A DNA stretch of 64,000 nt from Escherichia coli (GTDB taxonomy: Bacteria > Pseudomonadota > Gammaproteobacteria > Enterobacterales > Enterobacteriaceae), in NCBI RefSeq assembly GCF_050920415.1, contig NZ_CP169309.1, one strand, 5' to 3'. The stretch's first letter is position 1; every line of letters begins with the position of its first letter. This document shows, in pieces, positions 2,623-54,462 of the stretch. The notes beneath the pieces were generated by a model, which did no database searches, was not told the DNA's origin, and saw only the letters and a program-made list of their open reading frames with translations. The translations under genes were made by a program, and so were the position numbers.

Positions 2623-2648
2623 TCTGATTTAACCAACAATAAATTGAA

Positions 2649-2678
2649 GCCCGGCGTGTATTGCGCCGGTTTTTTTTT
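2649..2678 (+). terminator. Rho-independent terminator after gnd
   Basis: GC hairpin ccggcg...cgccgg followed by T9. Confidence 0.7.
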
Positions 2679-2859
2679 GCCGATTATCTTATAGACTAAA
2701 TTTCACTGCTTAATATTAACTTAATAAATATCAGCTATTCTTATAAAGAAAATCTGAATTGTTTTTTGTTGCGTTGACCATCTGACAACGTAGCGTTAAA
2801 ACTTTTAGCTCTTATCAGGATGCTAAAAACATCATGATTCACAGTTAAGTTAATTCTGA

Positions 2860-4035
<1,176 letters not shown>

Positions 4036-4044
4036 CATCCTGTT

Positions 4045-4072
4045 ATCAGGGCGATTTTCGCCCTGATTCTCT
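4045..4072 (+). terminator. Hairpin terminator after ugd
   Basis: tcagggcgattttcgccctga inverted repeat. Confidence 0.5.
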
Positions 4073-4178
4073 CATGTTCCCTTTGTAATAATTCATTATT
4101 TTTATCATTTATCCTATAGCATTCATGGCGATTATCGCTAAACTATGGCGACTTAAAATTATTTCGTCCGTTAGGGTA

Positions 4179-5159
4179 ATGATGAGAGTAGAAAATAATA
4201 ATGTTTCTGGGCAAAACCATGACCCGGAACAGATTGATTTGATTGATTTACTGGTCCAACTATGGCGTGGCAAGATGACAATCATCATTTCTGTCATTGT
4301 GGCTATAGCTCTGGCTATTGGATATTTGGCAGTAGCGAAGGAGAAATGGACGTCAACAGCAATTATCACTCAGCCCGATGTGGGGCAAATTGCTGGCTAT
4401 AACAATGCCATGAATGTTATCTATGGTCAGGCTGCACCGAAAGTATCGGATTTGCAGGAGACGTTAATTGGTCGCTTCAGTTCTGCCTTCTCTGCATTAG
4501 CAGAAACGCTGGATAATCAGGAAGAACCAGAAAAACTTACCATCGAACCTTCTGTTAAGAACCAGCAATTACCATTGACTGTTTCTTATGTTGGGCAAAC
4601 TGCAGAGGGCGCACAAATGAAGTTGGCCCAATACATTCAGCAAGTTGACGATAAAGTGAATCAAGAGCTAGAAAAGGATCTCAAGGACAACATTGCTCTG
4701 GGACGGAAAAACTTGCAGGACTCTTTAAGAACACAGGAAGTGGTTGCGCAGGAACAGAAAGATCTGCGTATCCGTCAGATTCAGGAAGCGTTGCAGTATG
4801 CGAATCAGGCGCAGGTGACAAAGCCACAAGTTCAGCAGACTGAAGATGTGACACAAGATACGTTGTTCCTTTTGGGGAGCGAAGCGCTGGAGTCGATGAT
4901 TAAGCACGAGGCGACCCGTCCGTTGGTGTTCTCGCCAAACTACTATCAGACTCGTCAAAACCTGCTGGATATCGAAAACTTAAAGGTTGATGATCTTGAT
5001 ATTCATGCTTACCGTTATGTGATGAAACCGACGTTACCTATTCGTCGCGATAGCCCGAAAAAGGCAATTACCTTGATTCTGGCGGTGCTGCTGGGCGGCA
5101 TGGTTGGCGCGGGGATTGTGCTGGGGCGTAACGCGCTGCGTAATTACAACGCGAAATAA
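4179..5159 (+). CDS. wzzB: O-antigen chain length determinant (Wzz, polysaccharide co-polymerase)
   Basis: ORF 4125..5159; start placed at internal Met (MMRVENNNV) to give about 326 aa; TM segments at both ends. Confidence 0.9.
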   Translation: MMRVENNNVSGQNHDPEQIDLIDLLVQLWRGKMTIIISVIVAIALAIGYLAVAKEKWTSTAIITQPDVGQIAGYNNAMNVIYGQAAPKVSDLQETLIGRFSSAFSALAETLDNQEEPEKLTIEPSVKNQQLPLTVSYVGQTAEGAQMKLAQYIQQVDDKVNQELEKDLKDNIALGRKNLQDSLRTQEVVAQEQKDLRIRQIQEALQYANQAQVTKPQVQQTEDVTQDTLFLLGSEALESMIKHEATRPLVFSPNYYQTRQNLLDIENLKVDDLDIHAYRYVMKPTLPIRRDSPKKAITLILAVLLGGMVGAGIVLGRNALRNYNAK

Positions 5160-5179
5160 TATTATTGTGCATTTAAGAG

Positions 5180-5217
5180 AAACGGGCAGGGTGGTGACAC
5201 CATGCCCGTTTTTTTTG
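5180..5217. terminator. Bidirectional terminator between convergent wzzB and hisI
   Basis: A-run, hairpin acgggca...tgcccgt, T8. Confidence 0.7.
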
Positions 5218-5253
5218 CCGGATGCGATGCTGGCGCATCTTATCCGGCCTACG
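5217..5253. repeat. REP (repetitive extragenic palindrome) element
   Basis: gccggatgcg...cttatccggcctac REP-type consensus. Confidence 0.6.
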
Positions 5254-5344
5254 TGTGTTGAGATAATGTGTAGGCACGATAAGCTTGCGCATCGGGCAAT
5301 GGCTCCGGGTGTGACAACAACATCACACCTGCTCAGCCCGCAAC

Positions 5345-5949
5345 TCACTGATGCCGTTTACGCAGGTTCTCAATTACCGTCGTTAAATCCAGATCCTGAT
5401 CCTGCAACAGCACCAGCAGGTGATACATCAAATCAGACGCCTCGTTGGTCAGCTCAAAGCGGTCATGTACCGTTGCTGCCAGTGCGGTTTCCACGCCTTC
5501 TTCGCCCACTTTCTGCGCAATGCGTTTAGTGCCGCTGGCATACAGTTTGGCGGTGTAAGAGGTTTCCGGGTCGGCAGATTTCCGTTCGGCGAGCAGTTGT
5601 TCCAGTTGATACAGGAACAGCCACTGGTGAGCGGTGTTGCCGAAGCAGCTGTTGGTGCCTTTGTGGCAGGTCGGGCCGATGGGATTCGCCAGCACCAGCA
5701 ATGTGTCGTTGTCGCAGTCCGGCGCAATGCTCACTACGTCGAGGAAATTGCCGGACGTTTCACCTTTGGTCCACAGTCGCTGTTTAGTGCGCGAGAAGAA
5801 GGTGACTTTGCCGCTTTCGATGGTTTTGTCCAGAGCTTCCGGATTCATATAGCCCAGCATTAGCACTTCGCCGGATACCGCGTGTTGAACAATTACCGGC
5901 ATCAATCCGTCGGTTTTTTCCCAGTCCAGTTCGCGACGTTGTTGTTCTG

Positions 5950-5956
<7 letters not shown>
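5345..5956 (-). CDS. hisI: Bifunctional phosphoribosyl-AMP cyclohydrolase / phosphoribosyl-ATP pyrophosphatase
   Basis: 203 aa, recognised HisIE; overlaps hisF stop. Confidence 0.95.
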
Positions 5957-8034
<2,078 letters not shown>

Positions 8035-9102: not shown

Positions 9103-11473
<2,371 letters not shown>

Positions 11474-11478
11474 GGCGA

Positions 11479-12378
11479 TCACTCCATCATCTTCTCAATC
11501 GGCAGGACCAGGATTGAACTGGCACCCAGCGCTTTCAGTTTTTCCATCGTTTCCCAGAACAGGGTTTCGCTGCTGACCATGTGCATCGCTACGCGCTGTT
11601 GATCACCCGCCAGCGGTAGAATGGTTGGGCGTTCGGCACCTGGCAGCAGGGCGATGACTTCATCCAGTCGGTCGGTTGGTGCGTGCATCATGATGTATTT
11701 TGATTCGCGCGCCTGGATCACGCCCTGAATACGCGTCAGCAGTTTGTCGATCAGTTGCTGTTTGGATTCTTCCATTTCGCCATCGCGTTGGATCAGGCAG
11801 GCTTTCGAGCGGTAGATAACTTCGACTTCGCGCAGGCCGTTAGCTTCCAGCGTGGCACCGGTGGAAACCAGATCGCAAATCGCATCCGCCAGTCCGGCGC
11901 GCGGCGCAACTTCGACAGAACCGTTCAGTAAGCAGGATTTAAAAGAGATGCCTTTCTGATCGAGATAACGCTTGAGCAGGTGAGGATAAGAGGTGGCGAT
12001 ACGTTTACCGTTTAAGGAGAGCGGGCCGTCCCAGGCTTCATCAACCGGCGTTGCCAGCGAAAGGCGGCAGCCGCCGAAATCCAGACGACGCAGGGTAAAG
12101 TAGCGAGGATCTTCACCCTGGGCGCGGCGGTTAAGCAGCTCTTCTTCCAGCACGTTTTCGCCGATAATCCCAAGGTCAACCACGCCGTCCATTACCAGAC
12201 CGGGAATGTCGTCGTCACGCACGCGCAGAATATCAATCGGCATGTTTTCTGCCATCGCGATCAGGCGCTGGGTGTGAAGATTAATTTTAATGCCGCAGCG
12301 CGCCAGTAATTCGCGTGAGTCATCACTTAAACGGCCGGATTTCTGCATAGCTATGCGTAAACGAGTGTTGTCTGTCAT
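11479..12378 (-). CDS. hisG: ATP phosphoribosyltransferase
   Basis: ORF 11479..12417; start at [17 protein letters not shown], 299 aa. Confidence 0.96.
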
Positions 12379-12422
12379 TTTCTTATTCCTCTTTAAACCT
12401 GTCTGAACCGTTATCAACCGCG

Positions 12423-12460
12423 CAATAAAAAAGCCCCCGGAAGGTGATCTTCCGGGGGCT
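12423..12460 (-). terminator. his operon attenuator terminator
   Basis: On minus strand: hairpin agcccccggaagatcaccttccgggggct followed by U-run, between hisL and hisG. Confidence 0.85.
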
Positions 12461-12523
12461 TTCTCATACGTTCATGCACCACTGGAAGATCTGAATGTCT
12501 TCCAGCACACATCGCCTGAAAGA

Positions 12524-12574
12524 CTAGTCAGGATGATGGTGATGATGGTGGTGTTTAAATTGAACGCGTGTCAT
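12524..12574 (-). CDS. hisL: his operon leader peptide (7 consecutive His codons)
   Basis: Minus strand ATGACACGCGTTCAATTTAAACACCACCATCATCACCATCATCCTGACTAG read directly = MTRVQFKHHHHHHHPD. Confidence 0.92.
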   Translation of the reverse strand: MTRVQFKHHHHHHHPD

Positions 12575-12797
12575 AAAAGTCTCTGTGAATGTTTATTCAA
12601 CTGATGTCTTTTAACCTAAACCACTTTCACGTTAGAAAGCAAGGGCTTTTTTATATATTTTATGGCGATGGATTTGTTTAATGAATGAGCGGGGAAAGGA
12701 GAGGGCCAGGAGTGGCTACGTTAAAAAAGTAATCGTGAAAATATGTCTTTAAAACCCTCAAGAACATTGTGTTCTGTAACTAAAGTGGGCTTGGTTC

Positions 12798-12897
12798 CTG
12801 CCGGATGCGGCGTGAATGCCTTATCTGGTCTACAAATGTTGCCTAAATTCAATATATTGATGTTTTTGTAGGACTGATAAGCGGAGCGCATCAGGCA
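12798..12897. repeat. BIME-like pair of REP elements
   Basis: ccggatgcggcgtgaatgccttatctggtctac and gactgataagcggagcgcatcaggc, REP-type palindromes. Confidence 0.5.
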
Positions 12898-13000
12898 ATT
12901 GTATATTTGCTAACAGTTTCGATTTCATTCATAGAATGAATTGTCAGTTTTGATACGCTAGCGTAGCCTTATAGATCTAAGGTGTATCAGGAGATAACGG

Positions 13001-13825
13001 ATGAAAAAGGTCGCAATTGTCGGGTTAGGGTGGTTAGGTATGCCGCTAGCGATGTCACTTTCAGCGCGAGGCTGGCAAGTCACCGGGAGTAAAACCACAC
13101 AAGATGGCGTCGAAGCGGCCCGAATGAGTGGCATTGATAGTTATCTGCTTCGCATGGAACCTGAGTTAGTTTGCGATTCTGACGATCTGGATGCCCTGAT
13201 GGATGCTGATGCGCTGGTCATCACGCTTCCGGCACGTCGTAGCGGCCCCGGCGATGAGTTCTATTTACAAGCGGTACAAGAGTTAGTGGATAGTGCGCTG
13301 GCTCATCATATTCCCCGCATTATTTTTACCAGCTCAACGTCTGTCTATGGCGACGCACAAGGCACCGTTAAAGAAACGACCCCGCGTAATCCGGTGACCA
13401 ACAGTGGACGAGTATTAAAAGAACTTGAAGACTGGCTGCACAATTTACCCGGTACTTCAGTCGATATTCTGCGTCTTGCGGGCCTGGTCGGGCCGGAACG
13501 TCATCCTGGTCGCTTTTTTGCCGGAAAAACCGCGCCTGATGGTGAACATGGTGTCAATTTAGTCCATTTAGAAGATGTTATTGGCGCTATCACCCTGTTG
13601 TTACAGGCACCTAAAGGCGGACACATCTATAATATATGTGCGCCAGCTCACCCTGCGCGTAATGTTTTCTATCCGCAGATGGCCCGTTTACTGGGACTGG
13701 AACCTCCGCAGTTCAGAAATAGTCTGGACAGCGGCAAAGGTAAGATTATTGATGGCAGTCGGATTTGTAATGAACTGGGATTTGAATACCAGTATCCCGA
13801 TCCGCTGGTAATGCCGCTGGAGTAA
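13001..13825 (+). CDS. yeeZ: NAD(P)-binding epimerase/dehydratase-family protein
   Basis: 274 aa, N-terminal GxxGxxG-like MKKVAIVGLGWLG. Confidence 0.85.
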   Translation: MKKVAIVGLGWLGMPLAMSLSARGWQVTGSKTTQDGVEAARMSGIDSYLLRMEPELVCDSDDLDALMDADALVITLPARRSGPGDEFYLQAVQELVDSALAHHIPRIIFTSSTSVYGDAQGTVKETTPRNPVTNSGRVLKELEDWLHNLPGTSVDILRLAGLVGPERHPGRFFAGKTAPDGEHGVNLVHLEDVIGAITLLLQAPKGGHIYNICAPAHPARNVFYPQMARLLGLEPPQFRNSLDSGKGKIIDGSRICNELGFEYQYPDPLVMPLE

Positions 13826-13870
13826 ACGATCACGCCAGCAGGACGCCGCATGCACTGCAAGGGGGCGTGT

Positions 13871-14800
13871 ATGAAACCACTGCTGGATGTGTTGATGATC
13901 CTCGATGCCTTAGAAAAAGAAGGCAGTTTTGCGGCGGCGTCGGCCAAACTCTATAAGACGCCGTCTGCTCTGAGTTACACCGTTCACAAGCTGGAAAGCG
14001 ACCTTAATATTCAATTGCTTGATCGTAGCGGTCACCGCGCAAAATTCACCCGCACCGGAAAAATGTTATTAGAGAAGGGGCGGGAAGTTCTGCATACCGT
14101 GCGAGAACTGGAAAAACAGGCGATAAAACTGCATGAAGGCTGGGAAAACGAGCTGGTGATTGGCGTGGACGACACGTTTCCTTTTTCTCTGCTTGCGCCA
14201 CTCATTGAAGCTTTTTATCAACATCATAGCGTGACGCGCCTGAAGTTTATCAATGGCGTACTCGGTGGTTCATGGGATGCCCTGACTCAGGGGCGAGCGG
14301 ATATTATTGTTGGCGCGATGCATGAGCCACCATCTTCCAGTGAGTTTGGTTTCTCACGGTTGGGCGATCTTGAACAAGTCTTTGCGGTCGCGCCCCATCA
14401 TCCGTTAGCCCAGGAAGAAGAACCGTTAAACCGTCGTATCATTAAGCGATATAGGGCGATTGTGGTAGGGGATACTGCGCAGGCAGGCGCTTCTACGGCC
14501 TCGCAACTTCTCGACGAACAAGAAGCCATTACCGTTTTCGATTTTAAAACCAAGCTGGAGCTGCAAATTAGCGGCCTCGGCTGCGGCTATTTACCCCGTT
14601 ATCTGGCACAACGTTTTCTCGATAGTGGCGCGTTAATCGAGAAGAAAGTGGTCGCCCAAACTCTCTTTGAACCTGTCTGGATTGGCTGGAACGAACAGAC
14701 CGCAGGACTTGCCAGCGCCTGGTGGCGAGACGAGATTTTAGCAAATAGTGCGATCGCCGGTGTTTATGCAAAATCTGATGACGGAAAATCAGCCATTTAA
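13871..14800 (+). CDS. yeeY: LysR-family transcriptional regulator
   Basis: ORF 13850..14800; start at MKPLLDVLMILDALEKEGSFAAAS (HTH), 309 aa. Confidence 0.85.
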   Translation: MKPLLDVLMILDALEKEGSFAAASAKLYKTPSALSYTVHKLESDLNIQLLDRSGHRAKFTRTGKMLLEKGREVLHTVRELEKQAIKLHEGWENELVIGVDDTFPFSLLAPLIEAFYQHHSVTRLKFINGVLGGSWDALTQGRADIIVGAMHEPPSSSEFGFSRLGDLEQVFAVAPHHPLAQEEEPLNRRIIKRYRAIVVGDTAQAGASTASQLLDEQEAITVFDFKTKLELQISGLGCGYLPRYLAQRFLDSGALIEKKVVAQTLFEPVWIGWNEQTAGLASAWWRDEILANSAIAGVYAKSDDGKSAI

Positions 14801-15066
14801 AGAAAAATTATTATGACAAGCCTCTCATTCTCTTGTCATTTCCCCCCCATTTAGGCACAATGCGCCGCTGTCAAAAAATGACTAAAAACCGACGTTTAAT
14901 TAGCGTCGGTTATTTTTTGCTTCAAACCAATCATTCATACCAAGAGGCCGGGCTTCGTACCGGATAGATATTTACTAAAAATCGACAGTTGTTGTCGCTG
15001 AGGAATCCAAAAAAATGGGGCAATTTTTTGCTTACGCGACGGTTATTACCGTAAAGGAGAATGACC

Positions 15067-16425
15067 ATGTCGCATAACGTTACTCCAAACACCTCTCGCG
15101 TGGAATTGCGTAAAACGCTTACGTTAGTTCCGGTTGTAATGATGGGTCTTGCCTATATGCAGCCGATGACGCTGTTTGATACATTTGGTATCGTTTCAGG
15201 CCTCACGGATGGTCATGTGCCGACAGCCTATGCGTTCGCATTGATTGCGATCCTGTTTACGGCTCTGAGCTACGGGAAGCTGGTTCGCCGCTATCCTTCT
15301 GCTGGCTCTGCATACACTTACGCCCAGAAATCCATTAGCCCGACCGTCGGCTTTATGGTGGGTTGGTCTTCTCTGCTCGACTATCTGTTCGCGCCGATGA
15401 TCAACATTCTGCTGGCGAAAATCTATTTTGAAGCTCTGGTGCCTTCCATCCCATCGTGGATGTTTGTGGTGGCGCTGGTGGCCTTTATGACCGCCTTTAA
15501 CCTGCGTAGTCTGAAATCCGTAGCGAACTTCAACACCGTCATCGTGGTGTTGCAGGTAGTGCTGATCGCGGTGATTCTGGGCATGGTTGTTTATGGCGTA
15601 TTTGAAGGTGAAGGCGCTGGTACGCTGGCGAGCACTCGTCCGTTCTGGTCTGGCGATGCGCATGTTATTCCGATGATTACCGGGGCGACAATCCTGTGCT
15701 TCTCCTTTACCGGCTTTGACGGCATCAGCAACCTGTCGGAAGAAACCAAAGATGCAGAGCGCGTGATCCCGCGTGCGATTTTCCTGACCGCGCTGATCGG
15801 CGGCATGATCTTCATCTTTGCAACTTACTTCCTGCAACTGTATTTCCCGGATATCTCTCGCTTTAAAGATCCGGATGCGTCACAGCCTGAAATCATGCTG
15901 TACGTTGCGGGTAAAGCGTTCCAGGTTGGCGCGCTGATCTTCTCCACCATTACCGTACTGGCGTCCGGTATGGCGGCGCACGCAGGCGTGGCGCGTCTGA
16001 TGTACGTAATGGGTCGTGACGGCGTATTCCCGAAAAGCTTCTTCGGTTATGTGCACCCGAAATGGCGTACTCCGGCAATGAACATCATCCTGGTTGGCGC
16101 GATTGCTCTGCTGGCAATCAACTTCGACCTGGTAATGGCTACGGCGCTGATTAACTTTGGTGCGCTGGTGGCGTTCACCTTCGTTAACCTGTCGGTTATC
16201 TCGCAGTTCTGGATCCGTGAGAAGCGTAACAAGACGCTGAAAGATCACTTCCAGTATCTGTTCCTGCCGATGTGTGGTGCGCTGACTGTAGGTGCGCTGT
16301 GGGTTAACCTGGAAGAAAGCTCAATGGTTCTGGGGCTGATCTGGGCGGCAATCGGTCTGATTTACCTGGCTTGCGTCACCAAGAGCTTCCGTAACCCGGT
16401 TCCGCAGTACGAAGACGTTGCATAA
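15067..16425 (+). CDS. plaP: Putrescine importer (APC-family amino acid/polyamine permease)
   Basis: ORF 15061..16425; start at [16 protein letters not shown], 452 aa, multi-TM. Confidence 0.9.
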
Positions 16426-37706: not shown

Positions 37707-45695
<7,989 letters not shown>

Positions 45696-46107
45696 GCTTA
45701 CCTTCCCTGAACGAGCTAACATAAATGCGCCCTTTCTAGCACAGCGAAAAAATATAAATCCTGATAGCAATATGATTGAAAATTAATAACTTTTCGTTAA
45801 GCAGTTTTGGGTGTGAGTTGCAAGAGGGGAGACTACTGAATAACTCAGTTTAATAATTGAGGGGGCAATGGTGACGAATATAGGGACGGAGTAGAGAAGA
45901 TAGTGCTGAACTCTTTGCCAGCAGAAGGTTATGTGGCACAAAAATAACCGTAACTTCTCACTCTCGACAGGAAAGCTGTAGACGGCGTCCATAACAAAAC
46001 GCCCCCAACCATAAGGTCGAGGGCGCTTAAGATGACAAACCCGCTCTTCGTTAAAGAATCAATGCTTAATGTAGATGAGTTGCATTGCACGATAAAAGCG
46101 AATTTTT

Positions 46108-46129
46108 AGAATTTGGCTCCTCTGACTGG
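46108..46129. repeat. 21-bp direct repeat of the 3' end of tRNA-Asn (distal att site of the islet)
   Basis: gaatttggctcctctgactgg is identical to 54382..54402 (3' end of asnT plus 5 bp). Confidence 0.85.
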
Positions 46130-46462
46130 GATCGCCGTAGCCATTAACAGGCTGATTGGTAAAGCTAAAAAAATTTGAGTTTGTCAAGACCACCAGAATG
46201 ACCACCATTTTAAAGTAACATTTGAAGTTTACTCAGTAGCACCTTTAGCTTCACTTACAATCAATTAACCTGTGAAGATAGCTGTACCTACAATCGCAAT
46301 AACTTATTACAGATCCGACGACAAACATCACCTGTTATCCACTCTGGCACTACCGTGCATGATAATCAATAAGTCGGGTGCTGGCTTGCAAGGCAATTGC
46401 GTTGTAATGTACCAAATCCCAGTTCGCCTTCACTCTAAAATGCCCCGACGTTTCGAACGCGT

Positions 46463-47341
46463 TTACGGTAAATAATGCGTGACAATCTGCAGGAACTCAT
46501 CCCGCATCTGGTTGTCGATTTTCGGATTCCATGCCACACCAATGTTCCATATGATCTGCTTTCCCCACAGAGTAATCAGCTTGACTCCTACAGGTAAAAA
46601 ATTCTCGACGCTGGCGGGTAGCAGCGCGAGACCATTCCCTCCGGCTATCAATGCTAGCAGGGAATGAATATCATTCGTCGCAGAGATTGGCTCAATGATG
46701 AGTTCATTATCCCGCAGGAACGCAGTCGTTTGCTCCGCCAGACAAGGGCTGACCGCTGGATCCATGCATAAAATCGGATAGATTGCCAGCGTACGCTGGA
46801 GATCGGTGGGATCAATATCGACGGCTACCGGGACAGCCAACACCAGATTTTCTTTATTTATTAAGCGAGAGGCCAATAATTCTGTTACCGGCATACGAAC
46901 AAAACCAGCATGCAGTTCACCTTCCATCAACATCCTAGCTTGTACGCTGGAGGCAATTTGGCTGATAACAACGTCGCAGTCGGGAAATTTCTGGCGAAAA
47001 GTGTTAATCCAAACTGGTGTGCTTTTAAACGAAGATATACCAAATCCGAGCACCAGTTTACCCGTACTCCCCTTTTGGATTTCTCTGGCGTAGGTTAAAA
47101 AATCGTGGTGGGATTTCAGCAACTCATAAGCTTTAGCAAACAACTGCCTGCCAACCATCGTCAACACTGCCCCGTGGCGACCACGCAGGAAAAGCTGCCC
47201 TCCGGTCTTCTGTTCGAGCATCTTGATCTGCTTTGAAAGCGCAGGTTGTGTCAGAAATAAAGCTTCTGCAGCTTTATTGTAGTTTCCCTTTTCCGCCAGT
47301 GTCACAAATGCACGCAGCAGCCTTATATCTATTCCTGACAT
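46463..47341 (-). CDS. LysR-family transcriptional regulator (islet-encoded, divergent from the operon)
   Basis: 292 aa, N-terminal HTH IRLLRAFVTLAEKGNYNKAAEALFLTQPALSKQIKMLE. Confidence 0.85.
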   Translation of the reverse strand: MSGIDIRLLRAFVTLAEKGNYNKAAEALFLTQPALSKQIKMLEQKTGGQLFLRGRHGAVLTMVGRQLFAKAYELLKSHHDFLTYAREIQKGSTGKLVLGFGISSFKSTPVWINTFRQKFPDCDVVISQIASSVQARMLMEGELHAGFVRMPVTELLASRLINKENLVLAVPVAVDIDPTDLQRTLAIYPILCMDPAVSPCLAEQTTAFLRDNELIIEPISATNDIHSLLALIAGGNGLALLPASVENFLPVGVKLITLWGKQIIWNIGVAWNPKIDNQMRDEFLQIVTHYLP

Positions 47342-47567
47342 TTATTGAATCCTGAAAAATTGGAATTATACAAATACTCGCAACAGATGACATGATGCGT
47401 AAAATGATTTACGCCGAGATCCCCTTGGTTTGTCAAACTCAGAAACGCCATACCTGCTGCTCTTGGTTCTATTTAACACTCACTAATGCGCAGGTTATTT
47501 ATAAAAATTGACCTCATAAATCATTCAAAAACATTAATTATATAAATACAATAAGGATTAAATATTT
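47342..47567. promoter_or_regulatory. Divergent promoter/operator region between the LysR gene and the isochorismatase-hypEF operon
   Basis: 226-bp AT-rich intergenic region between divergent starts; classic LysR arrangement; no specific site mapped. Confidence 0.5.
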
Positions 47568-48167
47568 ATGCCAAATATTGCCGTTCTCACTAATGACCTG
47601 CAGTATGAGTTTACCTACAAAATAACACGCTCTCCAGAAATTCTGGCGCAAAAACTCGTCCAGTTTAATCAGTTTCTCGATGGCATTCGCGCTCTGGATC
47701 AATCCATTATCCACCTGCAACTTATCAACGATCCTAATGACCCGGCGGTACAAAAGCGCTATCGCAACCGCGAAGCGGGCATTCCTGCACTAGCTGGTCG
47801 CCCGGAAAACCAGATTATCGATAAAGTATACCGCCCCACAGATCTGGTTGTAGTCAAGGGCAGAGACAGCGGTTTTTTTAATAACGATCTCGACGAAATC
47901 CTCCAGCAACTCGGGGTAAAAACCGTAATCGTTACCGGGTTGCAAACTCATGTTTGCGTGCAGACCACTGCAGCGGATGCCTTCTTTCGCGGCTATAACG
48001 TCTGGGTACCGGGCGACTGCGTGTTCGCTCCTTCGTCCGAAGATACAGAGCGTGCACTCGAGTGGCTTGCCAGCTATTGCGCAACTGTAGCACCTTCTGC
48101 GGAAATTTTATCAATATTGCAAAAACAGAACGATCTGCCTGAGCGCGGCGAAAGGGAAGCATCATGA
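47568..48167 (+). CDS. Isochorismatase-family cysteine hydrolase
   Basis: 199 aa; ...VTGLQTHVCVQTTAADAF... matches the catalytic Cys region of the isochorismatase/CSHase/nicotinamidase family. Confidence 0.75.
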   Translation: MPNIAVLTNDLQYEFTYKITRSPEILAQKLVQFNQFLDGIRALDQSIIHLQLINDPNDPAVQKRYRNREAGIPALAGRPENQIIDKVYRPTDLVVVKGRDSGFFNNDLDEILQQLGVKTVIVTGLQTHVCVQTTAADAFFRGYNVWVPGDCVFAPSSEDTERALEWLASYCATVAPSAEILSILQKQNDLPERGEREAS

Positions 48168-49195
48168 GCTTAACCCAGACGCTAAATCATGAAGAGGTCG
48201 TTGTACTGGATCATGGCACCGGGGCGAAATTAAGCCGCGAGTTGGTTGAAAAAATTGCTAGCATTCTCGGTGACACCTATCTGGGCGTGATGGAAGATAG
48301 CGCGGTGCTGGGGTTATCCACCAGGCGAATTGCCTTCACCACCGACTCCTTTGTTGCCACGCCGCTGATTTTCGGCAACGGTGATATTGGCAAAATCGCC
48401 GTATGCGGCACCGTTAACGATCTCGCTGTCAGTGGGGCTCGTCCCCTTTACATCACACTCAGTCTTATTATTGAGGAAGGTATGCCGATGGCTGATCTGG
48501 TCAGAATCATCGAGTCCGTACGTGAAACGGCTCGTGAGGCAGAGGTCAAGATTGTCGCTGGTGATACCAAGGTCGTAGGTAAAGGTGAAGCAGATCGGCT
48601 GTTTATCAATACTGCTGGCATCGGCGTGTTTGAACATCCGCCAGTCTCAGTTAAGAACGTGCGTCCGGGGCAGAAAATAATCCTGAGCGGATATATCGGC
48701 AATCACTCGATTCACCTGCTGTCGATGCGGGAAGGATTGGGGTTCGAGCGAAATATTCTTAGTGATTGCGCACCGCTGAACCACATTATTGACAAACTTA
48801 TCAGCAACATCCCTGAAGGCAAAATAGCGTCAATGCGAGACGTTACGCGCGGTGGGCTGTCCGCTGTTTTACACGAACATGCGCGCGCAACAAATTATCA
48901 GATTCATTTCGACCAGCCATCTTTGCCCATACAGCCGGAAACCGCCATGGCAGCTAATATGCTGGGTGTTGACGTCATTAATCTCGCTAATGAAGGTTGT
49001 TTGTGCCTGTTTGTTGAACCTGAGTATGCTCAGAAGGTACTACATTTGCTGCAGGAGCATCCTGTCGGCAAGCACGCGACAATTATCGGCGAGATCACCG
49101 CTGTCTCGGGTACTGAAGTCTATATGATTGAAGCTGATGGAACACACACAGAAGTCGAGGAATTATATGGCGCAGAATTACCCAGACTCTGTTGA
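48164..49195 (+). CDS. HypE-like protein (PurM superfamily; carbamoyl dehydratase / thiocyanate-forming type) with C-terminal Cys
   Basis: 343 aa; ...DTKVV.KG.ADRLFINTAG.G... and C-terminus ...ELPRLC resembling HypE PRIC; ATGA overlap with upstream gene. Confidence 0.8.
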   Translation: MSLTQTLNHEEVVVLDHGTGAKLSRELVEKIASILGDTYLGVMEDSAVLGLSTRRIAFTTDSFVATPLIFGNGDIGKIAVCGTVNDLAVSGARPLYITLSLIIEEGMPMADLVRIIESVRETAREAEVKIVAGDTKVVGKGEADRLFINTAGIGVFEHPPVSVKNVRPGQKIILSGYIGNHSIHLLSMREGLGFERNILSDCAPLNHIIDKLISNIPEGKIASMRDVTRGGLSAVLHEHARATNYQIHFDQPSLPIQPETAMAANMLGVDVINLANEGCLCLFVEPEYAQKVLHLLQEHPVGKHATIIGEITAVSGTEVYMIEADGTHTEVEELYGAELPRLC

Positions 49196-51545
49196 GCTTC
49201 ACGAGACGCCGGAAACCCGGCGTTACCGCATCTGTGGGGTCGTTCAGGGCGTTGGATTTCGTCCCTTTGTTCACCGACTGGCCCGCACCTATGGTGCCAC
49301 CGGCTGGGTGTTAAACGATTCAGAAGGCGTGTTGCTTGAGCTGCAGGCATCCGGCACGGTTATTGCCAGAATCATGGACAAACTGGTGACCGAGGCACCA
49401 CCACTGGCAAAAATCATCAGTACGCAGGAAGTTAGCCCAACGGATACCAGAGCGCACTATGAAACGTTCAGCATCCGTAAAAGCCGCGATCATACCAGCA
49501 TGGACACGATTATCCCGCCAGATACCAACGTCTGCAGCGATTGCCTGCGCGAGATAAGCGATCCTGATAATCATCGTTATCGTTACGCTTTCACCAATTG
49601 CACCAATTGTGGGCCGCGCTATTCCATTATTCTTGGTATGCCTTACGATCGTGCCCAGAGCACTATGCGTAAATTCCCTTTATGTCCAACCTGTGAGCGT
49701 GAATACAACGATATTGAGGATCGACGCTATCATGCCCAGCCCAATGCCTGCCCAGTTTGCGGCCCACAGTTGCAACTTACCGATCGACAGGGCACATCCG
49801 TTCACACAGATGATATTGTCAAATTTGCCATTACGAAACTAAAAGAAGGCGGAATTCTTGCAATAAAGAGCCTTGGTGGCTTTCATCTCGTGGCCGATGC
49901 TTGCAATGAGAATGCTGTCAATGAACTTCGGCAACGCAAGCGAAGAGACGCCAAACCTTTTGCAGTGATGGTCGCGGATGTGGAAAGCGCGTCGCGTATT
50001 GCTTTCATCCCCCCCTGTAATCACAAATTGCTGGAAAGCCCGCAGCGTCCCATTGTCTTGTTGTATAAGCGCAACGTCCTGCTGGCGAGTACCGTTGCGC
50101 CACATAATCCGAACATCGGTGTAATGCTGCCTTCAACGCCGCTTCAGCATTTATTGCTGGAAGACCCGTCTCTGCCGATCCTGATTATGACCAGCGGTAA
50201 TATTTCCGGTCATCCGATCGTCTTTGACAACGACATGGCAATTAAGCAACTCGGGAAAATCGCGGATTACTTCATTCTGAATAATCGCGATATTCATACG
50301 CGTGTTGACGATTCGGTGGTCCGCACGGTGTTTCTCAACGACGCCATTACCTCGCAGCTATCGTTTTTGCGCCGCTCCCGCGGTTACGCGCCATACCCTA
50401 TTCATCTACCTTACGCAGTGGATTCCGTTATCGCGCTCGGGGCGGAGCTAAAAAACACGATCAGCATCGGCAAAGGAAAACAGGTTTTTCTGAGCCAGCA
50501 TATTGGCGATCTTAAGAATAACGTGACTTTTAAATCACATATCGAATGTATTGATCATCTTCAAAACCTGCTGAACGTGAAGGCAAATGTCGTGGCCTGC
50601 GATTTGCATCCCTCTTTCCGCTCTACCCGGCATGCGCTGGAGAATTTAGAGCATCAGGTTGTTCAGGTTCAACACCATCACGCGCATATGGCATCCTGCA
50701 TGGCGGAAAATGGCCTGTCAGGTACTACTCTAGGCGTAATTTTTGACGGTACAGGATATGGCACCGACGGCACCATTTGGGGCGGTGAGTTTCTCGTTGG
50801 TGATTTCGAAAAATTCGAGCGTGCAGGATGCTTGCGTTCAATGACCCTGCCCGGAGGCGATCGGGCAGTTAAAGAGCCGCTGCGCGTCGGCATCTCCTTA
50901 CTGGTGGAAACCTTCGGCGAAGATATCAGTACGCTCGCAGTACCAGGCTTGCAGGCGCTCCAGCCTCAGCAGCGCGATATATTCAGTAAAATGGCGACCA
51001 GAAAAATCAACACCACCACGACCAGCAGCATGGGCAGACTATTTGACGGCATCGCCGCGCTGATGGGCGTTTGCACTCAGGTGGAGTACGAAGCCCAGGC
51101 GGCCATTGAACTGGAAGCGCTGCTGCAGTGTAAACTTCATATGACGGCTCCGTTCAGCTACATCATTGCCGATGTCGAGAATAAGCTCGAGGTGGATTAT
51201 CGCCCGATGATAAGGGAACTGGTGCAATGCTTCAGCCAGCCCGGTTTTGATATGGCCGAACTAAGTCGGCGCTTTCACTCTACCATCGTCGACATGATTT
51301 GCGAGGTCTGTAAACGTCTGGTGGCACGCTCAGGCACGCAACAAATTGTCCTGAGCGGCGGCGTGTTCTGCAATGAATTCATCCTCGTTAATTCTCTTAA
51401 CAGTCTGGAGTCTTGTGGATTCCGGCCTTACAGCCATCAGTTAGTTCCGACTAACGATGGTGGTATTTCATTGGGGCAAGTGGTTATTGCTACCGCATAC
51501 ACTCGCGCAACGCGCAATAAAAATCTGGAGAGAGAAAATGCATAG
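49167..51545 (+). CDS. HypF-like carbamoyltransferase (acylphosphatase, two CxxC-N18-CxxC Zn fingers, YrdC-like and Kae1-like domains)
   Basis: ORF 49128..51545; start at ATG 49167 with GAGG RBS; VQGVGFRPFV acylphosphatase motif; CSDC...CTNCGPR and CPTC...CPVCGP fingers; HHHAH in the C-terminal domain. Confidence 0.82.
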   Translation: MAQNYPDSVELHETPETRRYRICGVVQGVGFRPFVHRLARTYGATGWVLNDSEGVLLELQASGTVIARIMDKLVTEAPPLAKIISTQEVSPTDTRAHYETFSIRKSRDHTSMDTIIPPDTNVCSDCLREISDPDNHRYRYAFTNCTNCGPRYSIILGMPYDRAQSTMRKFPLCPTCEREYNDIEDRRYHAQPNACPVCGPQLQLTDRQGTSVHTDDIVKFAITKLKEGGILAIKSLGGFHLVADACNENAVNELRQRKRRDAKPFAVMVADVESASRIAFIPPCNHKLLESPQRPIVLLYKRNVLLASTVAPHNPNIGVMLPSTPLQHLLLEDPSLPILIMTSGNISGHPIVFDNDMAIKQLGKIADYFILNNRDIHTRVDDSVVRTVFLNDAITSQLSFLRRSRGYAPYPIHLPYAVDSVIALGAELKNTISIGKGKQVFLSQHIGDLKNNVTFKSHIECIDHLQNLLNVKANVVACDLHPSFRSTRHALENLEHQVVQVQHHHAHMASCMAENGLSGTTLGVIFDGTGYGTDGTIWGGEFLVGDFEKFERAGCLRSMTLPGGDRAVKEPLRVGISLLVETFGEDISTLAVPGLQALQPQQRDIFSKMATRKINTTTTSSMGRLFDGIAALMGVCTQVEYEAQAAIELEALLQCKLHMTAPFSYIIADVENKLEVDYRPMIRELVQCFSQPGFDMAELSRRFHSTIVDMICEVCKRLVARSGTQQIVLSGGVFCNEFILVNSLNSLESCGFRPYSHQLVPTNDGGISLGQVVIATAYTRATRNKNLERENA

Positions 51546-53471: not shown

Positions 53472-54027
53472 TTTCTGCCTGGCAAATACTGTGAAACGCT
53501 GACGCAAATTTTACTTTCCTGCGTATTGTCATCACAGGCCGTACAGACAGTGCGCGGTCTGTTGGCGGATCTGCCTGGTATTTTGCCGATGAACTGAGGG
53601 CGTCCTGCGGGATACGTATCGCCAGGGGCGTGAAACTAATTGATGAGGTGGCGGCATGATGCCGGCGGACTAGCATATCTGCCTTTCGCCGCCTGACATG
53701 TCCTTTGGGGCCGCTGTCAGTTCAGAGTAAAGGAGAAAAAGATCGATACCGAGGGGGGGCACGACGCCCCGGAGACACCCCTGTTTCGTCAGACAGTCTG
53801 TACCGCGTACAGCCTGAAACTCCCTAAACCTCAACAAACTGCCACTTCGACGTGAAGGTATCGTTCTGGCGCAGCCAAAAAGCACATGCCGGAGACTGTT
53901 TTTTTGGTTGTAGAGGGTAGTCATGAGCAAATTAAGTAGTGAAATGAAGGCCCTGACGAAGAAAGCAGGCGGCAGCTTCAAAACGGTAAATGACCGTATC
54001 CATATTACAAAACGGTTCAGTGAGCAT

Positions 54028-54225
54028 TTACGCGAACTGAACATCCAGATCCGGCGGGTATGCGCCAAGACTGACTCTGGATTCTTTTCCGTTGAAACGA
54101 TATTTGAGATACCAGATGCGTGAACCGCCCGGATTGACGAGCAGATACAGACCGTGAGAGTCGGAGAGTTTTACCGGACGGGAAGAGGTTTTTAACTTGC
54201 GGATTTTAGAATCGTTTAAAGACAT
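54028..54225 (-). pseudogene. P4-type tyrosine integrase, N-terminal remnant only
   Basis: MSLNDSKIRKLKTSSRPVKLSDSHGLYLLVNPGGSRIWYLKYRFNGKESRVSLGAYP matches the N-terminal arm-binding region of tRNA-associated island integrases, then terminates prematurely. Confidence 0.65.
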
Positions 54226-54386
54226 TTGGGGGTCACTCCAGAATCGAACCAAACTGACCCCAGATCTGACCACCAAATTATCCCGATGCGGAGAGAAAAC
54301 CAGATACGCACCGGGGAGGATTTTCACGCTAACTTACTGAACCGTAAACAAATAGAGATGTACAGATAAGCATGAAAACTTGAATT

Positions 54387-54462
54387 TGGCTCCTCTGACT
54401 GGACTCGAACCAGTGACATACGGATTAACAGTCCGCCGTTCTACCGACTGAACTACAGAGGA
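54387..54462 (-). tRNA. asnT: tRNA-Asn (GUU)
   Basis: 76 nt, identical tRNA-Asn sequence; sits between mtfA and the islet/yeeJ. Confidence 0.93.

Follow-up and report, generated by a model that had tools for sequence, protein, structure and literature searches.

A divergent LysR-type regulator and its putative operator at a HypE/HypF-containing tRNA islet operon of Escherichia coli

LysR-type transcriptional regulators (LTTRs) typically occupy two sites at the promoter they activate, one for recognition near -65 and one for activation near -35, and repress their own gene through a divergent, overlapping promoter; those encoded next to divergent operons are mostly activators. Here, we analyze a minus-strand lysR-family gene of Escherichia coli and the plus-strand operon that diverges from it, which encodes an isochorismatase-family cysteine hydrolase, a HypE-like protein, a HypF-like carbamoyltransferase, a HAD phosphatase and an MFS transporter. 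Both lie in a 64,000-nt stretch of contig NZ_CP169309.1, referred to here as the window (Table 1). How does this locus compare with the described systems it most resembles? With BenM/CatM/CbnR-type LTTRs, it shares the two-domain architecture of the regulator, the divergence of gene and operon and, as predicted below, sites near -65 and -35 and autorepression through an overlapping promoter. The likeness to BenM/CatM, whose structures are the closest solved ones (82 bits), is at the family level only, and their target genes are unrelated to this operon. CynR-cynTSX of E. coli likewise combines a divergent LTTR with a small operon for a one-carbon C-N compound, and it was the source of the inducer candidates in an initial annotation of the window; however, CynR is not an orthologue (NF008416, 63 bits versus a cut-off of 277), the window operon contains neither cyanase nor carbonic anhydrase, and the regulator clade described here persists beside a HAD gene alone, without a C-N enzyme. 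The lysR-pfp-ifp module of Klebsiella and Citrobacter is also small, mobile and enterobacterial, with a divergent LysR and an operon that includes an isochorismatase-family protein, and both LysR-dependent activation and cross-talk with a pOXA-48-encoded LysR paralogue have been shown experimentally (PMC11686079). It differs in comprising only a pirin and an isochorismatase under another LysR, and serves here as an analogy only.

Our analysis suggests that the window LysR acts on the divergent operon through a conserved block at the 5' end of its own gene, and that regulator and operon arrived together on a genomic islet; we assign this mechanism a probability of about 0.68. The linkage was tested both ways, from the LysR protein (290 relatives at E <= 1e-20, with 80 genomic loci retrieved) and from the cysteine hydrolase. 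This LysR is encoded divergently upstream in 10/10 Enterobacterales loci examined that carry the cysteine hydrolase, HypE and HypF genes: those of E. coli, Raoultella terrigena, Citrobacter freundii, Citrobacter sp. Res13, UBA7338/Pseudescherichia, Escherichia sp. E1V33, Lonsdalea, Serratia sp. UGAL515B, Buttiauxella and the Salmonella diarizonae plasmid p28NP1. The flanking genes are unrelated among these ten loci, indicating that the six genes, lysR and the five-gene operon, move as a unit. The divergent pairing thus recurs in unrelated genomic contexts and is not a matter of chance. Co-inheritance across genera and on a plasmid is what would be expected of a cognate local regulator, which, judged by these comparisons, the LysR most likely is. 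Outside this order, a Burkholderia locus has a divergent LysR that is merely 34% identical.

Two of the ten loci deserve a closer description. In Salmonella enterica subsp. diarizonae, the full six-gene module sits on the 170-kb RepB plasmid p28NP1 (CP152066.1), where it adjoins the replication gene; the plasmid-borne LysR is 52% identical to that of the window. In R. terrigena (positions 9345-15683 of the retrieved locus), the module lies beside mtfA, as in E. coli, and on its lysR side adjoins a cluster of the sulfur-carrier type with aminotransferase, SrpI-like, ThiF-rhodanese, ThiS, JAB and PALP genes. An 82-kb Citrobacter 'plasmid' match was discounted as plasmid carriage, as it contains chromosomal housekeeping genes in the same context as on the chromosome.

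In E. coli, the lysR gene and the operon are the whole cargo of an 8.3-kb tRNA-Asn islet and arrived together. The insertion is adjacent to a tRNA gene, is bounded by 21-bp direct repeats, retains integrase remnants and has a patchy distribution: the segment 46300-53700, 100% identical to strain MFDS1022581, is present in 16/5426 complete E. coli genomes, and in most E. coli genomes that match the yeeJ-side sequence, this sequence abuts tRNA-Asn directly. On that side, the islet is flanked by a minus-strand ORF of 2687 aa (37707-45770), for which the annotation of the identical genome gives an Ig-like domain-containing protein, a large adhesin of the yeeJ type. No feature is assigned to the ~330 bp (46130-46462) that separate the lysR stop codon from the left repeat. 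A decayed version of the islet is found in E. coli WL297, which retains only query positions 2640-7401 and lacks lysR, the gene for the cysteine hydrolase and a 5' portion of hypE.

The initial annotation had described a LysR-type regulator gene on the minus strand and an AT-rich gap of 226 bp between it and the operon, and both descriptions hold. Residues 6-65 of the encoded protein match Pfam HTH_1 (PF00126, E 1.5e-18), the N-terminal winged helix-turn-helix, and residues 91-274 match LysR_substrate (PF03466, E 1e-14), the C-terminal effector-binding domain; RefSeq calls the same LysR family ORF identically in the 100%-identical E. coli genome. With both domains, a length close to the ~300 aa expected and the divergent layout, the protein is an LTTR at the sequence level. 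Could it nevertheless be the orthologue of a characterized regulator such as CynR, AlsR, HcaR, XapR or BenM/CatM, whose true target lies elsewhere and whose position next to the operon is incidental? There is a weak family-level likeness to these models and to the BenM/CatM structures, but the scores fall far under the equivalog cut-offs: the protein stays below the curated threshold of all 53 NCBIfam LysR models, the best being AlsR (124.7 versus 430 bits), with HcaR, for instance, at 107 versus 356. The gene is missing from 5410/5426 E. coli genomes and was acquired with the islet, its adjacency to the operon is kept across genera, and the window holds a single candidate operator, ahead of this operon, the surrounding 101 bp of which occur once per carrier genome by BLAST. 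We consider an orthologue with a distant target effectively refuted, and the concern raised in the initial annotation, that the regulator might belong to a characterized group with an unrelated target, does not apply. By these sequence scores, the protein is an uncharacterized LysR outside any characterized orthologue group (AlsR, HcaR, PRK09986, CidR, CatM/BenM, CynR, Nac, OxyR and others); full-text literature searches returned no description of it.

Where would such a regulator bind? The initial annotation had proposed searching the intergenic region for T-N11-A boxes. This proved uninformative: the 226 bp contain 31 such boxes, compared with 25.1 +/- 3.4 in dinucleotide shuffles, and the best T-N11-A dyad in the gap matches at 6/9 positions, which is equalled in 69% of shuffles. 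Phylogenetic footprinting, in which the lysR-proximal DNA was aligned across ~50 family loci, instead brought out a conserved block that overlaps the lysR start codon. Its consensus, in window orientation, is ATATC[C/T]ATTCC - N6 - TTATC[A/G]A - N12/13 - [G/T]GA[A/T]TTATACA, colinear in the ~50 loci. The block is identical at 40-44 of its 48 nt (83-92%) in comparisons with loci that have reached saturation at the 4-fold-degenerate sites of lysR, with no more than 17-37% identity there. A profile of the block has a single match in the window (47329-47372, E 9e-8) and one significant site per related locus, the degenerate block pattern matches once versus 0 expected, and BLAST finds the block region once per genome in 15 carrier E. 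coli genomes. Altogether, the conserved control elements are confined to the lysR-proximal ~75 bp, reaching into the lysR coding region (47325-47396).

Two elements stand out within the block. The first is a T-N11-A box, found as ATTC[CT]-N6-T[TA]AT at the same place in 47/48 family loci scanned and in further loci added later; it straddles the lysR start codon and hence lies partly outside the interval that the initial annotation had proposed to search. The second is the core GGAATTATACA, at a spacing from box to ATTATACA that is fixed across the family. The ATTATACA core is common to a sister LysR clade, described below, which reads GTGATTATACA. In Serratia-type relatives, the core belongs to a perfect palindrome, TTGATTA-N5-TAATCAA, as its left arm, and a further TAATCAA comes next; this supports the block as a protein-binding site and not a promoter alone. 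Other candidate sites fared less well. The inverted repeat ATTCC (47331-47335)/GGAAT (47362-47366) was rejected as a dyad or RNA stem: in the sister clade, GTGAT replaces GGAAT while ATTCC stays, so that complementarity is not maintained. An ATAC-N7-GTAT site of the BenM/CatM type is not conserved, with a perfect copy in Escherichia sp. E1V33 only, and when k-mers (k = 5-8) from 13 lineages were enumerated irrespective of position on the right-hand side of the core block, nothing rose above shuffles.

The block overlaps two predicted promoters placed back to back. That of lysR matches the consensus at 10/12 positions, and its -10 hexamer TATAAT (the complement of ATTATA) is invariant across the family; transcription is predicted to start near 47358, leaving a 17-nt leader with the Shine-Dalgarno sequence AGGA at 47353-47350. 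A -10-like hexamer on the plus strand, carrying A as its second and T as its sixth base, starts 52-54 nt from the box centre in 13/14 loci of the HAD-linked clade, in 11 of them at exactly +53; at other offsets the hexamer scores 0-5, save at +31, which corresponds to the ATTATACA core. The hexamer is CATGAT in the window and TATGAT or CATTAT elsewhere, and the sister clades have TGAAAT or TGTAAT at the -10 position. Neighbouring operon genes, all five on the plus strand, overlap by 1-29 nt, which leaves the 226-bp gap as the only non-coding space for an operon promoter. If TATACA is taken as the -35 element, the position of the hexamer predicts an operon start near 47403; the GGAATTATACA core then falls at about -41 to -31, and the centre of the box at -65. 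Such spacing would correspond to the textbook geometry of LTTR recognition and activation sites, with the regulator's own promoter predicted to lie inside the footprint.

From this arrangement we infer LysR binding to the block, both transcription starts, activation of the operon and autorepression. A LysR tetramer would occupy the ~50-bp block (47325-47375), with the T-N11-A box ATTCC-N6-TTAT, centred at 47338, as the recognition site and an activation site covering GGAATTATACA. As the predicted lysR promoter and its leader lie within this footprint, binding would repress lysR itself. The weak predicted rightward promoter overlaps the lysR promoter, with the box at the classical -65 position; in the presence of a small-molecule co-inducer, LysR would recruit RNA polymerase to it, and the operon would then be transcribed with an unstructured leader of ~165 nt. 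The same layout would also allow LysR to act mainly as a ligand-relieved repressor that shuts RNA polymerase out of both overlapping promoters until the inducer releases it. The core does span the lysR -10 as well as the predicted operon -35, and the perfect palindrome of Serratia-type relatives sits on the core at about -31 to -36 from any possible target start. We nevertheless regard repression as the main mode of action as unlikely, since the predicted operon promoter is weak (TATACA, an 18-nt spacer and CATGAT, with G at -11 in sister clades), as is typical of activator-dependent promoters, since the position of another conserved element, exactly at -65, is that expected of an LTTR activator, and since LTTRs next to divergent operons are mostly activators.

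What, then, of the operon-proximal, AT-rich half of the gap? A separate operon promoter could reside there, for example TTCAAA-17-TACAAT at 47524-47552, leaving LysR to control only itself or as a relic of a former LysR-HAD pair. This is the only plus-strand sigma-70-like match found in the gap by scan, the core block recurs there as a 78% direct repeat (47527-47549), and many genomes have the LysR-HAD pair but not the first three operon genes, so that the insertion of these genes with a promoter of their own is conceivable. However, the match (9/12) is no better than in shuffles (4 found, 3.2 expected), its start would fall past the Shine-Dalgarno sequence, ~9 nt ahead of the ATG, and conservation of the segment, repeat included, already fails in R. 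terrigena, whose LysR is 90% identical. The absence of the repeat there marks it as probably an AT-rich chance similarity, and we rejected it as a second site. Moreover, in Citrobacter-type loci, the gap shrinks to ~150 bp in total and the lysR-proximal block is kept. A separate promoter is, on this evidence, quite unlikely.

Several observations weigh against activation by LysR through the block. The box shows little dyad symmetry past AT..C-N5-G..AT, and, as it lies partly in lysR codons 1-4, its conservation owes something to coding constraint as well. Both promoters are predicted at the consensus level, and the sister-clade hexamer TGAAAT is without the critical A at -11. In E. coli, an unusually long leader is implied, without detectable structure (fold z = -1.4 versus shuffled sequences). 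Finally, the same first three operon genes occur in Trinickia, an Alteromonadaceae genome, Sorangium and Streptomyces without an adjacent divergent LysR of this kind.

The remaining ~165 bp of the gap (47404-47567) are conserved among close relatives only, and poorly even in R. terrigena. A riboswitch or small RNA in the gap was considered and rejected, with no Rfam match of note and the leader fold given above. The palindrome GCGTAAA-N4-TTTACGC across the predicted operon start is imperfect in R. terrigena and Kluyvera and absent elsewhere, and is probably not functional. A 35-codon ORF that begins at the predicted operon start (47404-47511) is destroyed in R. terrigena, where ATA replaces ATG and a stop follows, and is probably not a gene.

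Table 1. Features of the regulator, its control region, the operon and the islet edges in the window.
Feature	Coordinates	Strand	Details
lysR-family regulator gene	46463..47341	-	ORF, ATG start, 292 aa; RefSeq WP_000014150.1
Divergent intergenic region	47342..47567		226 bp, 31% GC versus 48% for the window
Conserved 48-nt block, proposed LTTR operator (recognition and activation site), with lysR promoter and leader inside	47325..47372		Footprinting
T-N11-A box ATTCCTGACATTTAT	47331..47345		T at 47332, A at 47344, centre 47338; spans lysR start codon
Core GGAATTATACA	47362..47372		11/11 nt identical in all eight comparisons
Predicted lysR promoter	47365..47393	-	-35 ATGTCA 47393-47388, 17-nt spacer, -10 TATAAT 47370-47365; 10/12 consensus matches
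Predicted operon promoter	47367..47396	+	-35-like TATACA 47367-47372, 18-nt spacer, -10-like CATGAT 47391-47396; start near 47403
Palindrome GCGTAAA-N4-TTTACGC	47397..47414		Across predicted operon start
Operon gene 1, isochorismatase-family cysteine hydrolase, 199 aa	47568..48167	+	ORF, family match, RefSeq
Operon gene 2, HypE-like protein, 343 aa	48164..49195	+	TIGR02124, 415 bits versus cut-off 252
Operon gene 3, HypF-like carbamoyltransferase, 792 aa	49167..51545	+	TIGR00143, 788 bits versus cut-off 466; start codon per RefSeq
Operon gene 4, HAD-IA phosphatase, 246 aa	51538..52278	+	Family match, RefSeq; constant partner throughout this LysR clade
Operon gene 5, MFS transporter, 397 aa	52278..53471	+	Family match, RefSeq
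Left 21-bp direct repeat GAATTTGGCTCCTCTGACTGG (tRNA-Asn 3' end)	46109..46129		Left islet edge
Two integrase N-terminal fragments (pseudogenes) beside tRNA-Asn	53923..54225		RefSeq annotation of identical region
Right 21-bp direct repeat GAATTTGGCTCCTCTGACTGG	54382..54402		Overlaps tRNA-Asn 3' end
tRNA-Asn	54387..54462	-	3' end overlapped by right repeat

To which signal would the regulator respond? The initial annotation had expected the inducer to reveal the substrate of the HypE/HypF (HypEF) pathway. This is uncertain and just one possibility, since relatives of the regulator do without these genes. Orthologous LysRs (45-61% identity) diverge from a HAD gene alone in several strains of Gilliamella and in Silvania, Sodalis, Kluyvera genomosp. 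3 and the isolate RIT691; Gilliamella WF3-4 has the cysteine hydrolase and the HAD gene. In Kluyvera intermedia, where the LysR is 84% identical, a 72-aa cysteine-hydrolase remnant precedes the HAD gene and documents loss. Full-operon and HAD-only loci are interleaved in one clade of the LysR neighbour-joining tree. The constant genomic partner of this LysR clade is the HAD gene, and HypEF are optional. As LysR and HAD persist without HypE and HypF, the ligand need not be a HypEF-specific compound.

The sister LysR clade (40-50% identity) is found on chromosomes of Pantoea, Xenorhabdus, Cedecea, Serratia and Yersinia and on Klebsiella IncFIB plasmids (among them K. pneumoniae pPM48TC_140). Both clades have the operator block colinear and at the same spacing, and the divergent region of the sister clade is compact, at 80-100 bp. 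The two differ in their targets: instead of a HAD-containing operon, the sister clade, likewise uncharacterized, diverges from a single gene for a ~334-aa nitrilase-superfamily C-N hydrolase. Cross-talk between both clades via the common operator ATTCC-N6-TTATC...ATTATACA is possible, going by the similarity of the sites. In a Trinickia cluster, HAD and CN_hydrolase genes both lie behind HypF, suggesting that these partners probably belong to related chemistry. A co-inducer linked to whatever the pathway shares with the HAD phosphatase is more likely than one linked to HypEF chemistry alone.

Some pointers to the ligand come from structural likenesses. The nearest solved structures to the HAD phosphatase are the phosphorylated-carbohydrate phosphatase TM_1254 and beta-phosphoglucomutase, those to the cysteine hydrolase are an N-carbamoylsarcosine-amidase-related protein, RutB and biuret hydrolase, and relatives carry extra genes for SIS-domain, glycosyltransferase and EIIA-Man proteins. 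Taken together, these point to a phosphorylated or carbamoylated sugar-like metabolite as a reasonable but unproven ligand class, which we infer from protein families and gene neighbourhoods.

Finally, we would like to consider the operon itself, which represents the more unusual biology of this locus. Canonical HypE ends in PRIC, the cysteine of which carries the thiocarbamate or thiocyanate; the HypE-like protein of the window ends in ...PRLC (at 49195), so that the C-terminal cysteine motif is kept. HypC, HypD and a hydrogenase, which would accompany [NiFe]-hydrogenase maturation, are absent from the islet and from ~15 related HypE/HypF loci, in which the partners are instead cysteine hydrolase, HAD, MFS, SIS, glycosyltransferase or nonribosomal peptide synthetase (NRPS) genes. 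The trio of cysteine hydrolase, HypE-like and HypF-like genes (47568-51545 in the window) forms a conserved cassette, likewise devoid of HypC, HypD and hydrogenase. It ranges from Enterobacterales to Burkholderiaceae (with HAD, SIS and MFS genes and one for a CN_hydrolase or amidohydrolase), an Alteromonadaceae genome (with HAD, GT2 glycosyltransferase and MFS genes), Sorangium (straight after a giant NRPS gene, with ABC and GST genes next) and Streptomyces (with aminotransferase, MFS and M20 peptidase genes), and the cysteine hydrolase is still ~50% identical in actinomycetes. A HypE/HypF pair without HypC/HypD is thus found together with a cysteine hydrolase in Proteobacteria, myxobacteria and actinomycetes alike, which suggests a small-molecule, non-hydrogenase use of HypEF chemistry. 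Full-text literature searches returned no description of a non-hydrogenase HypE/HypF cassette. A broader picture can be drawn tentatively, as a possibility that we hold to be doubtful: the LysR and its nitrilase-linked sister clade could constitute one regulator family with a common operator, sensing an intermediate of a mobile, hydrogenase-unrelated pathway in which HypF and HypE would carbamoylate a sugar-derived molecule and then dehydrate the group to a cyano or thiocyano function, HAD would dephosphorylate the product and the MFS transporter would export it.

As a textbook LysR arrangement, the divergent pair itself holds little intrinsic surprise. Its practical value lies in a defined control region of ~80 bp (47325-47403) with specific bases to mutate, and in a corrected expectation, in that the gene to which the regulator is tied is HAD, with HypEF optional. 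The operon promoter could be used as a biosensor for inducer screening, offering a realistic way to learn what HypE and HypF do outside hydrogenase maturation in the strains concerned, some E. coli, Citrobacter and Salmonella. If the broader picture is true, identifying the ligand of the regulator would offer the most direct way to what the orphan HypEF cassette produces, a cassette that Burkholderiaceae, myxobacterial NRPS clusters and Streptomyces clusters also contain.

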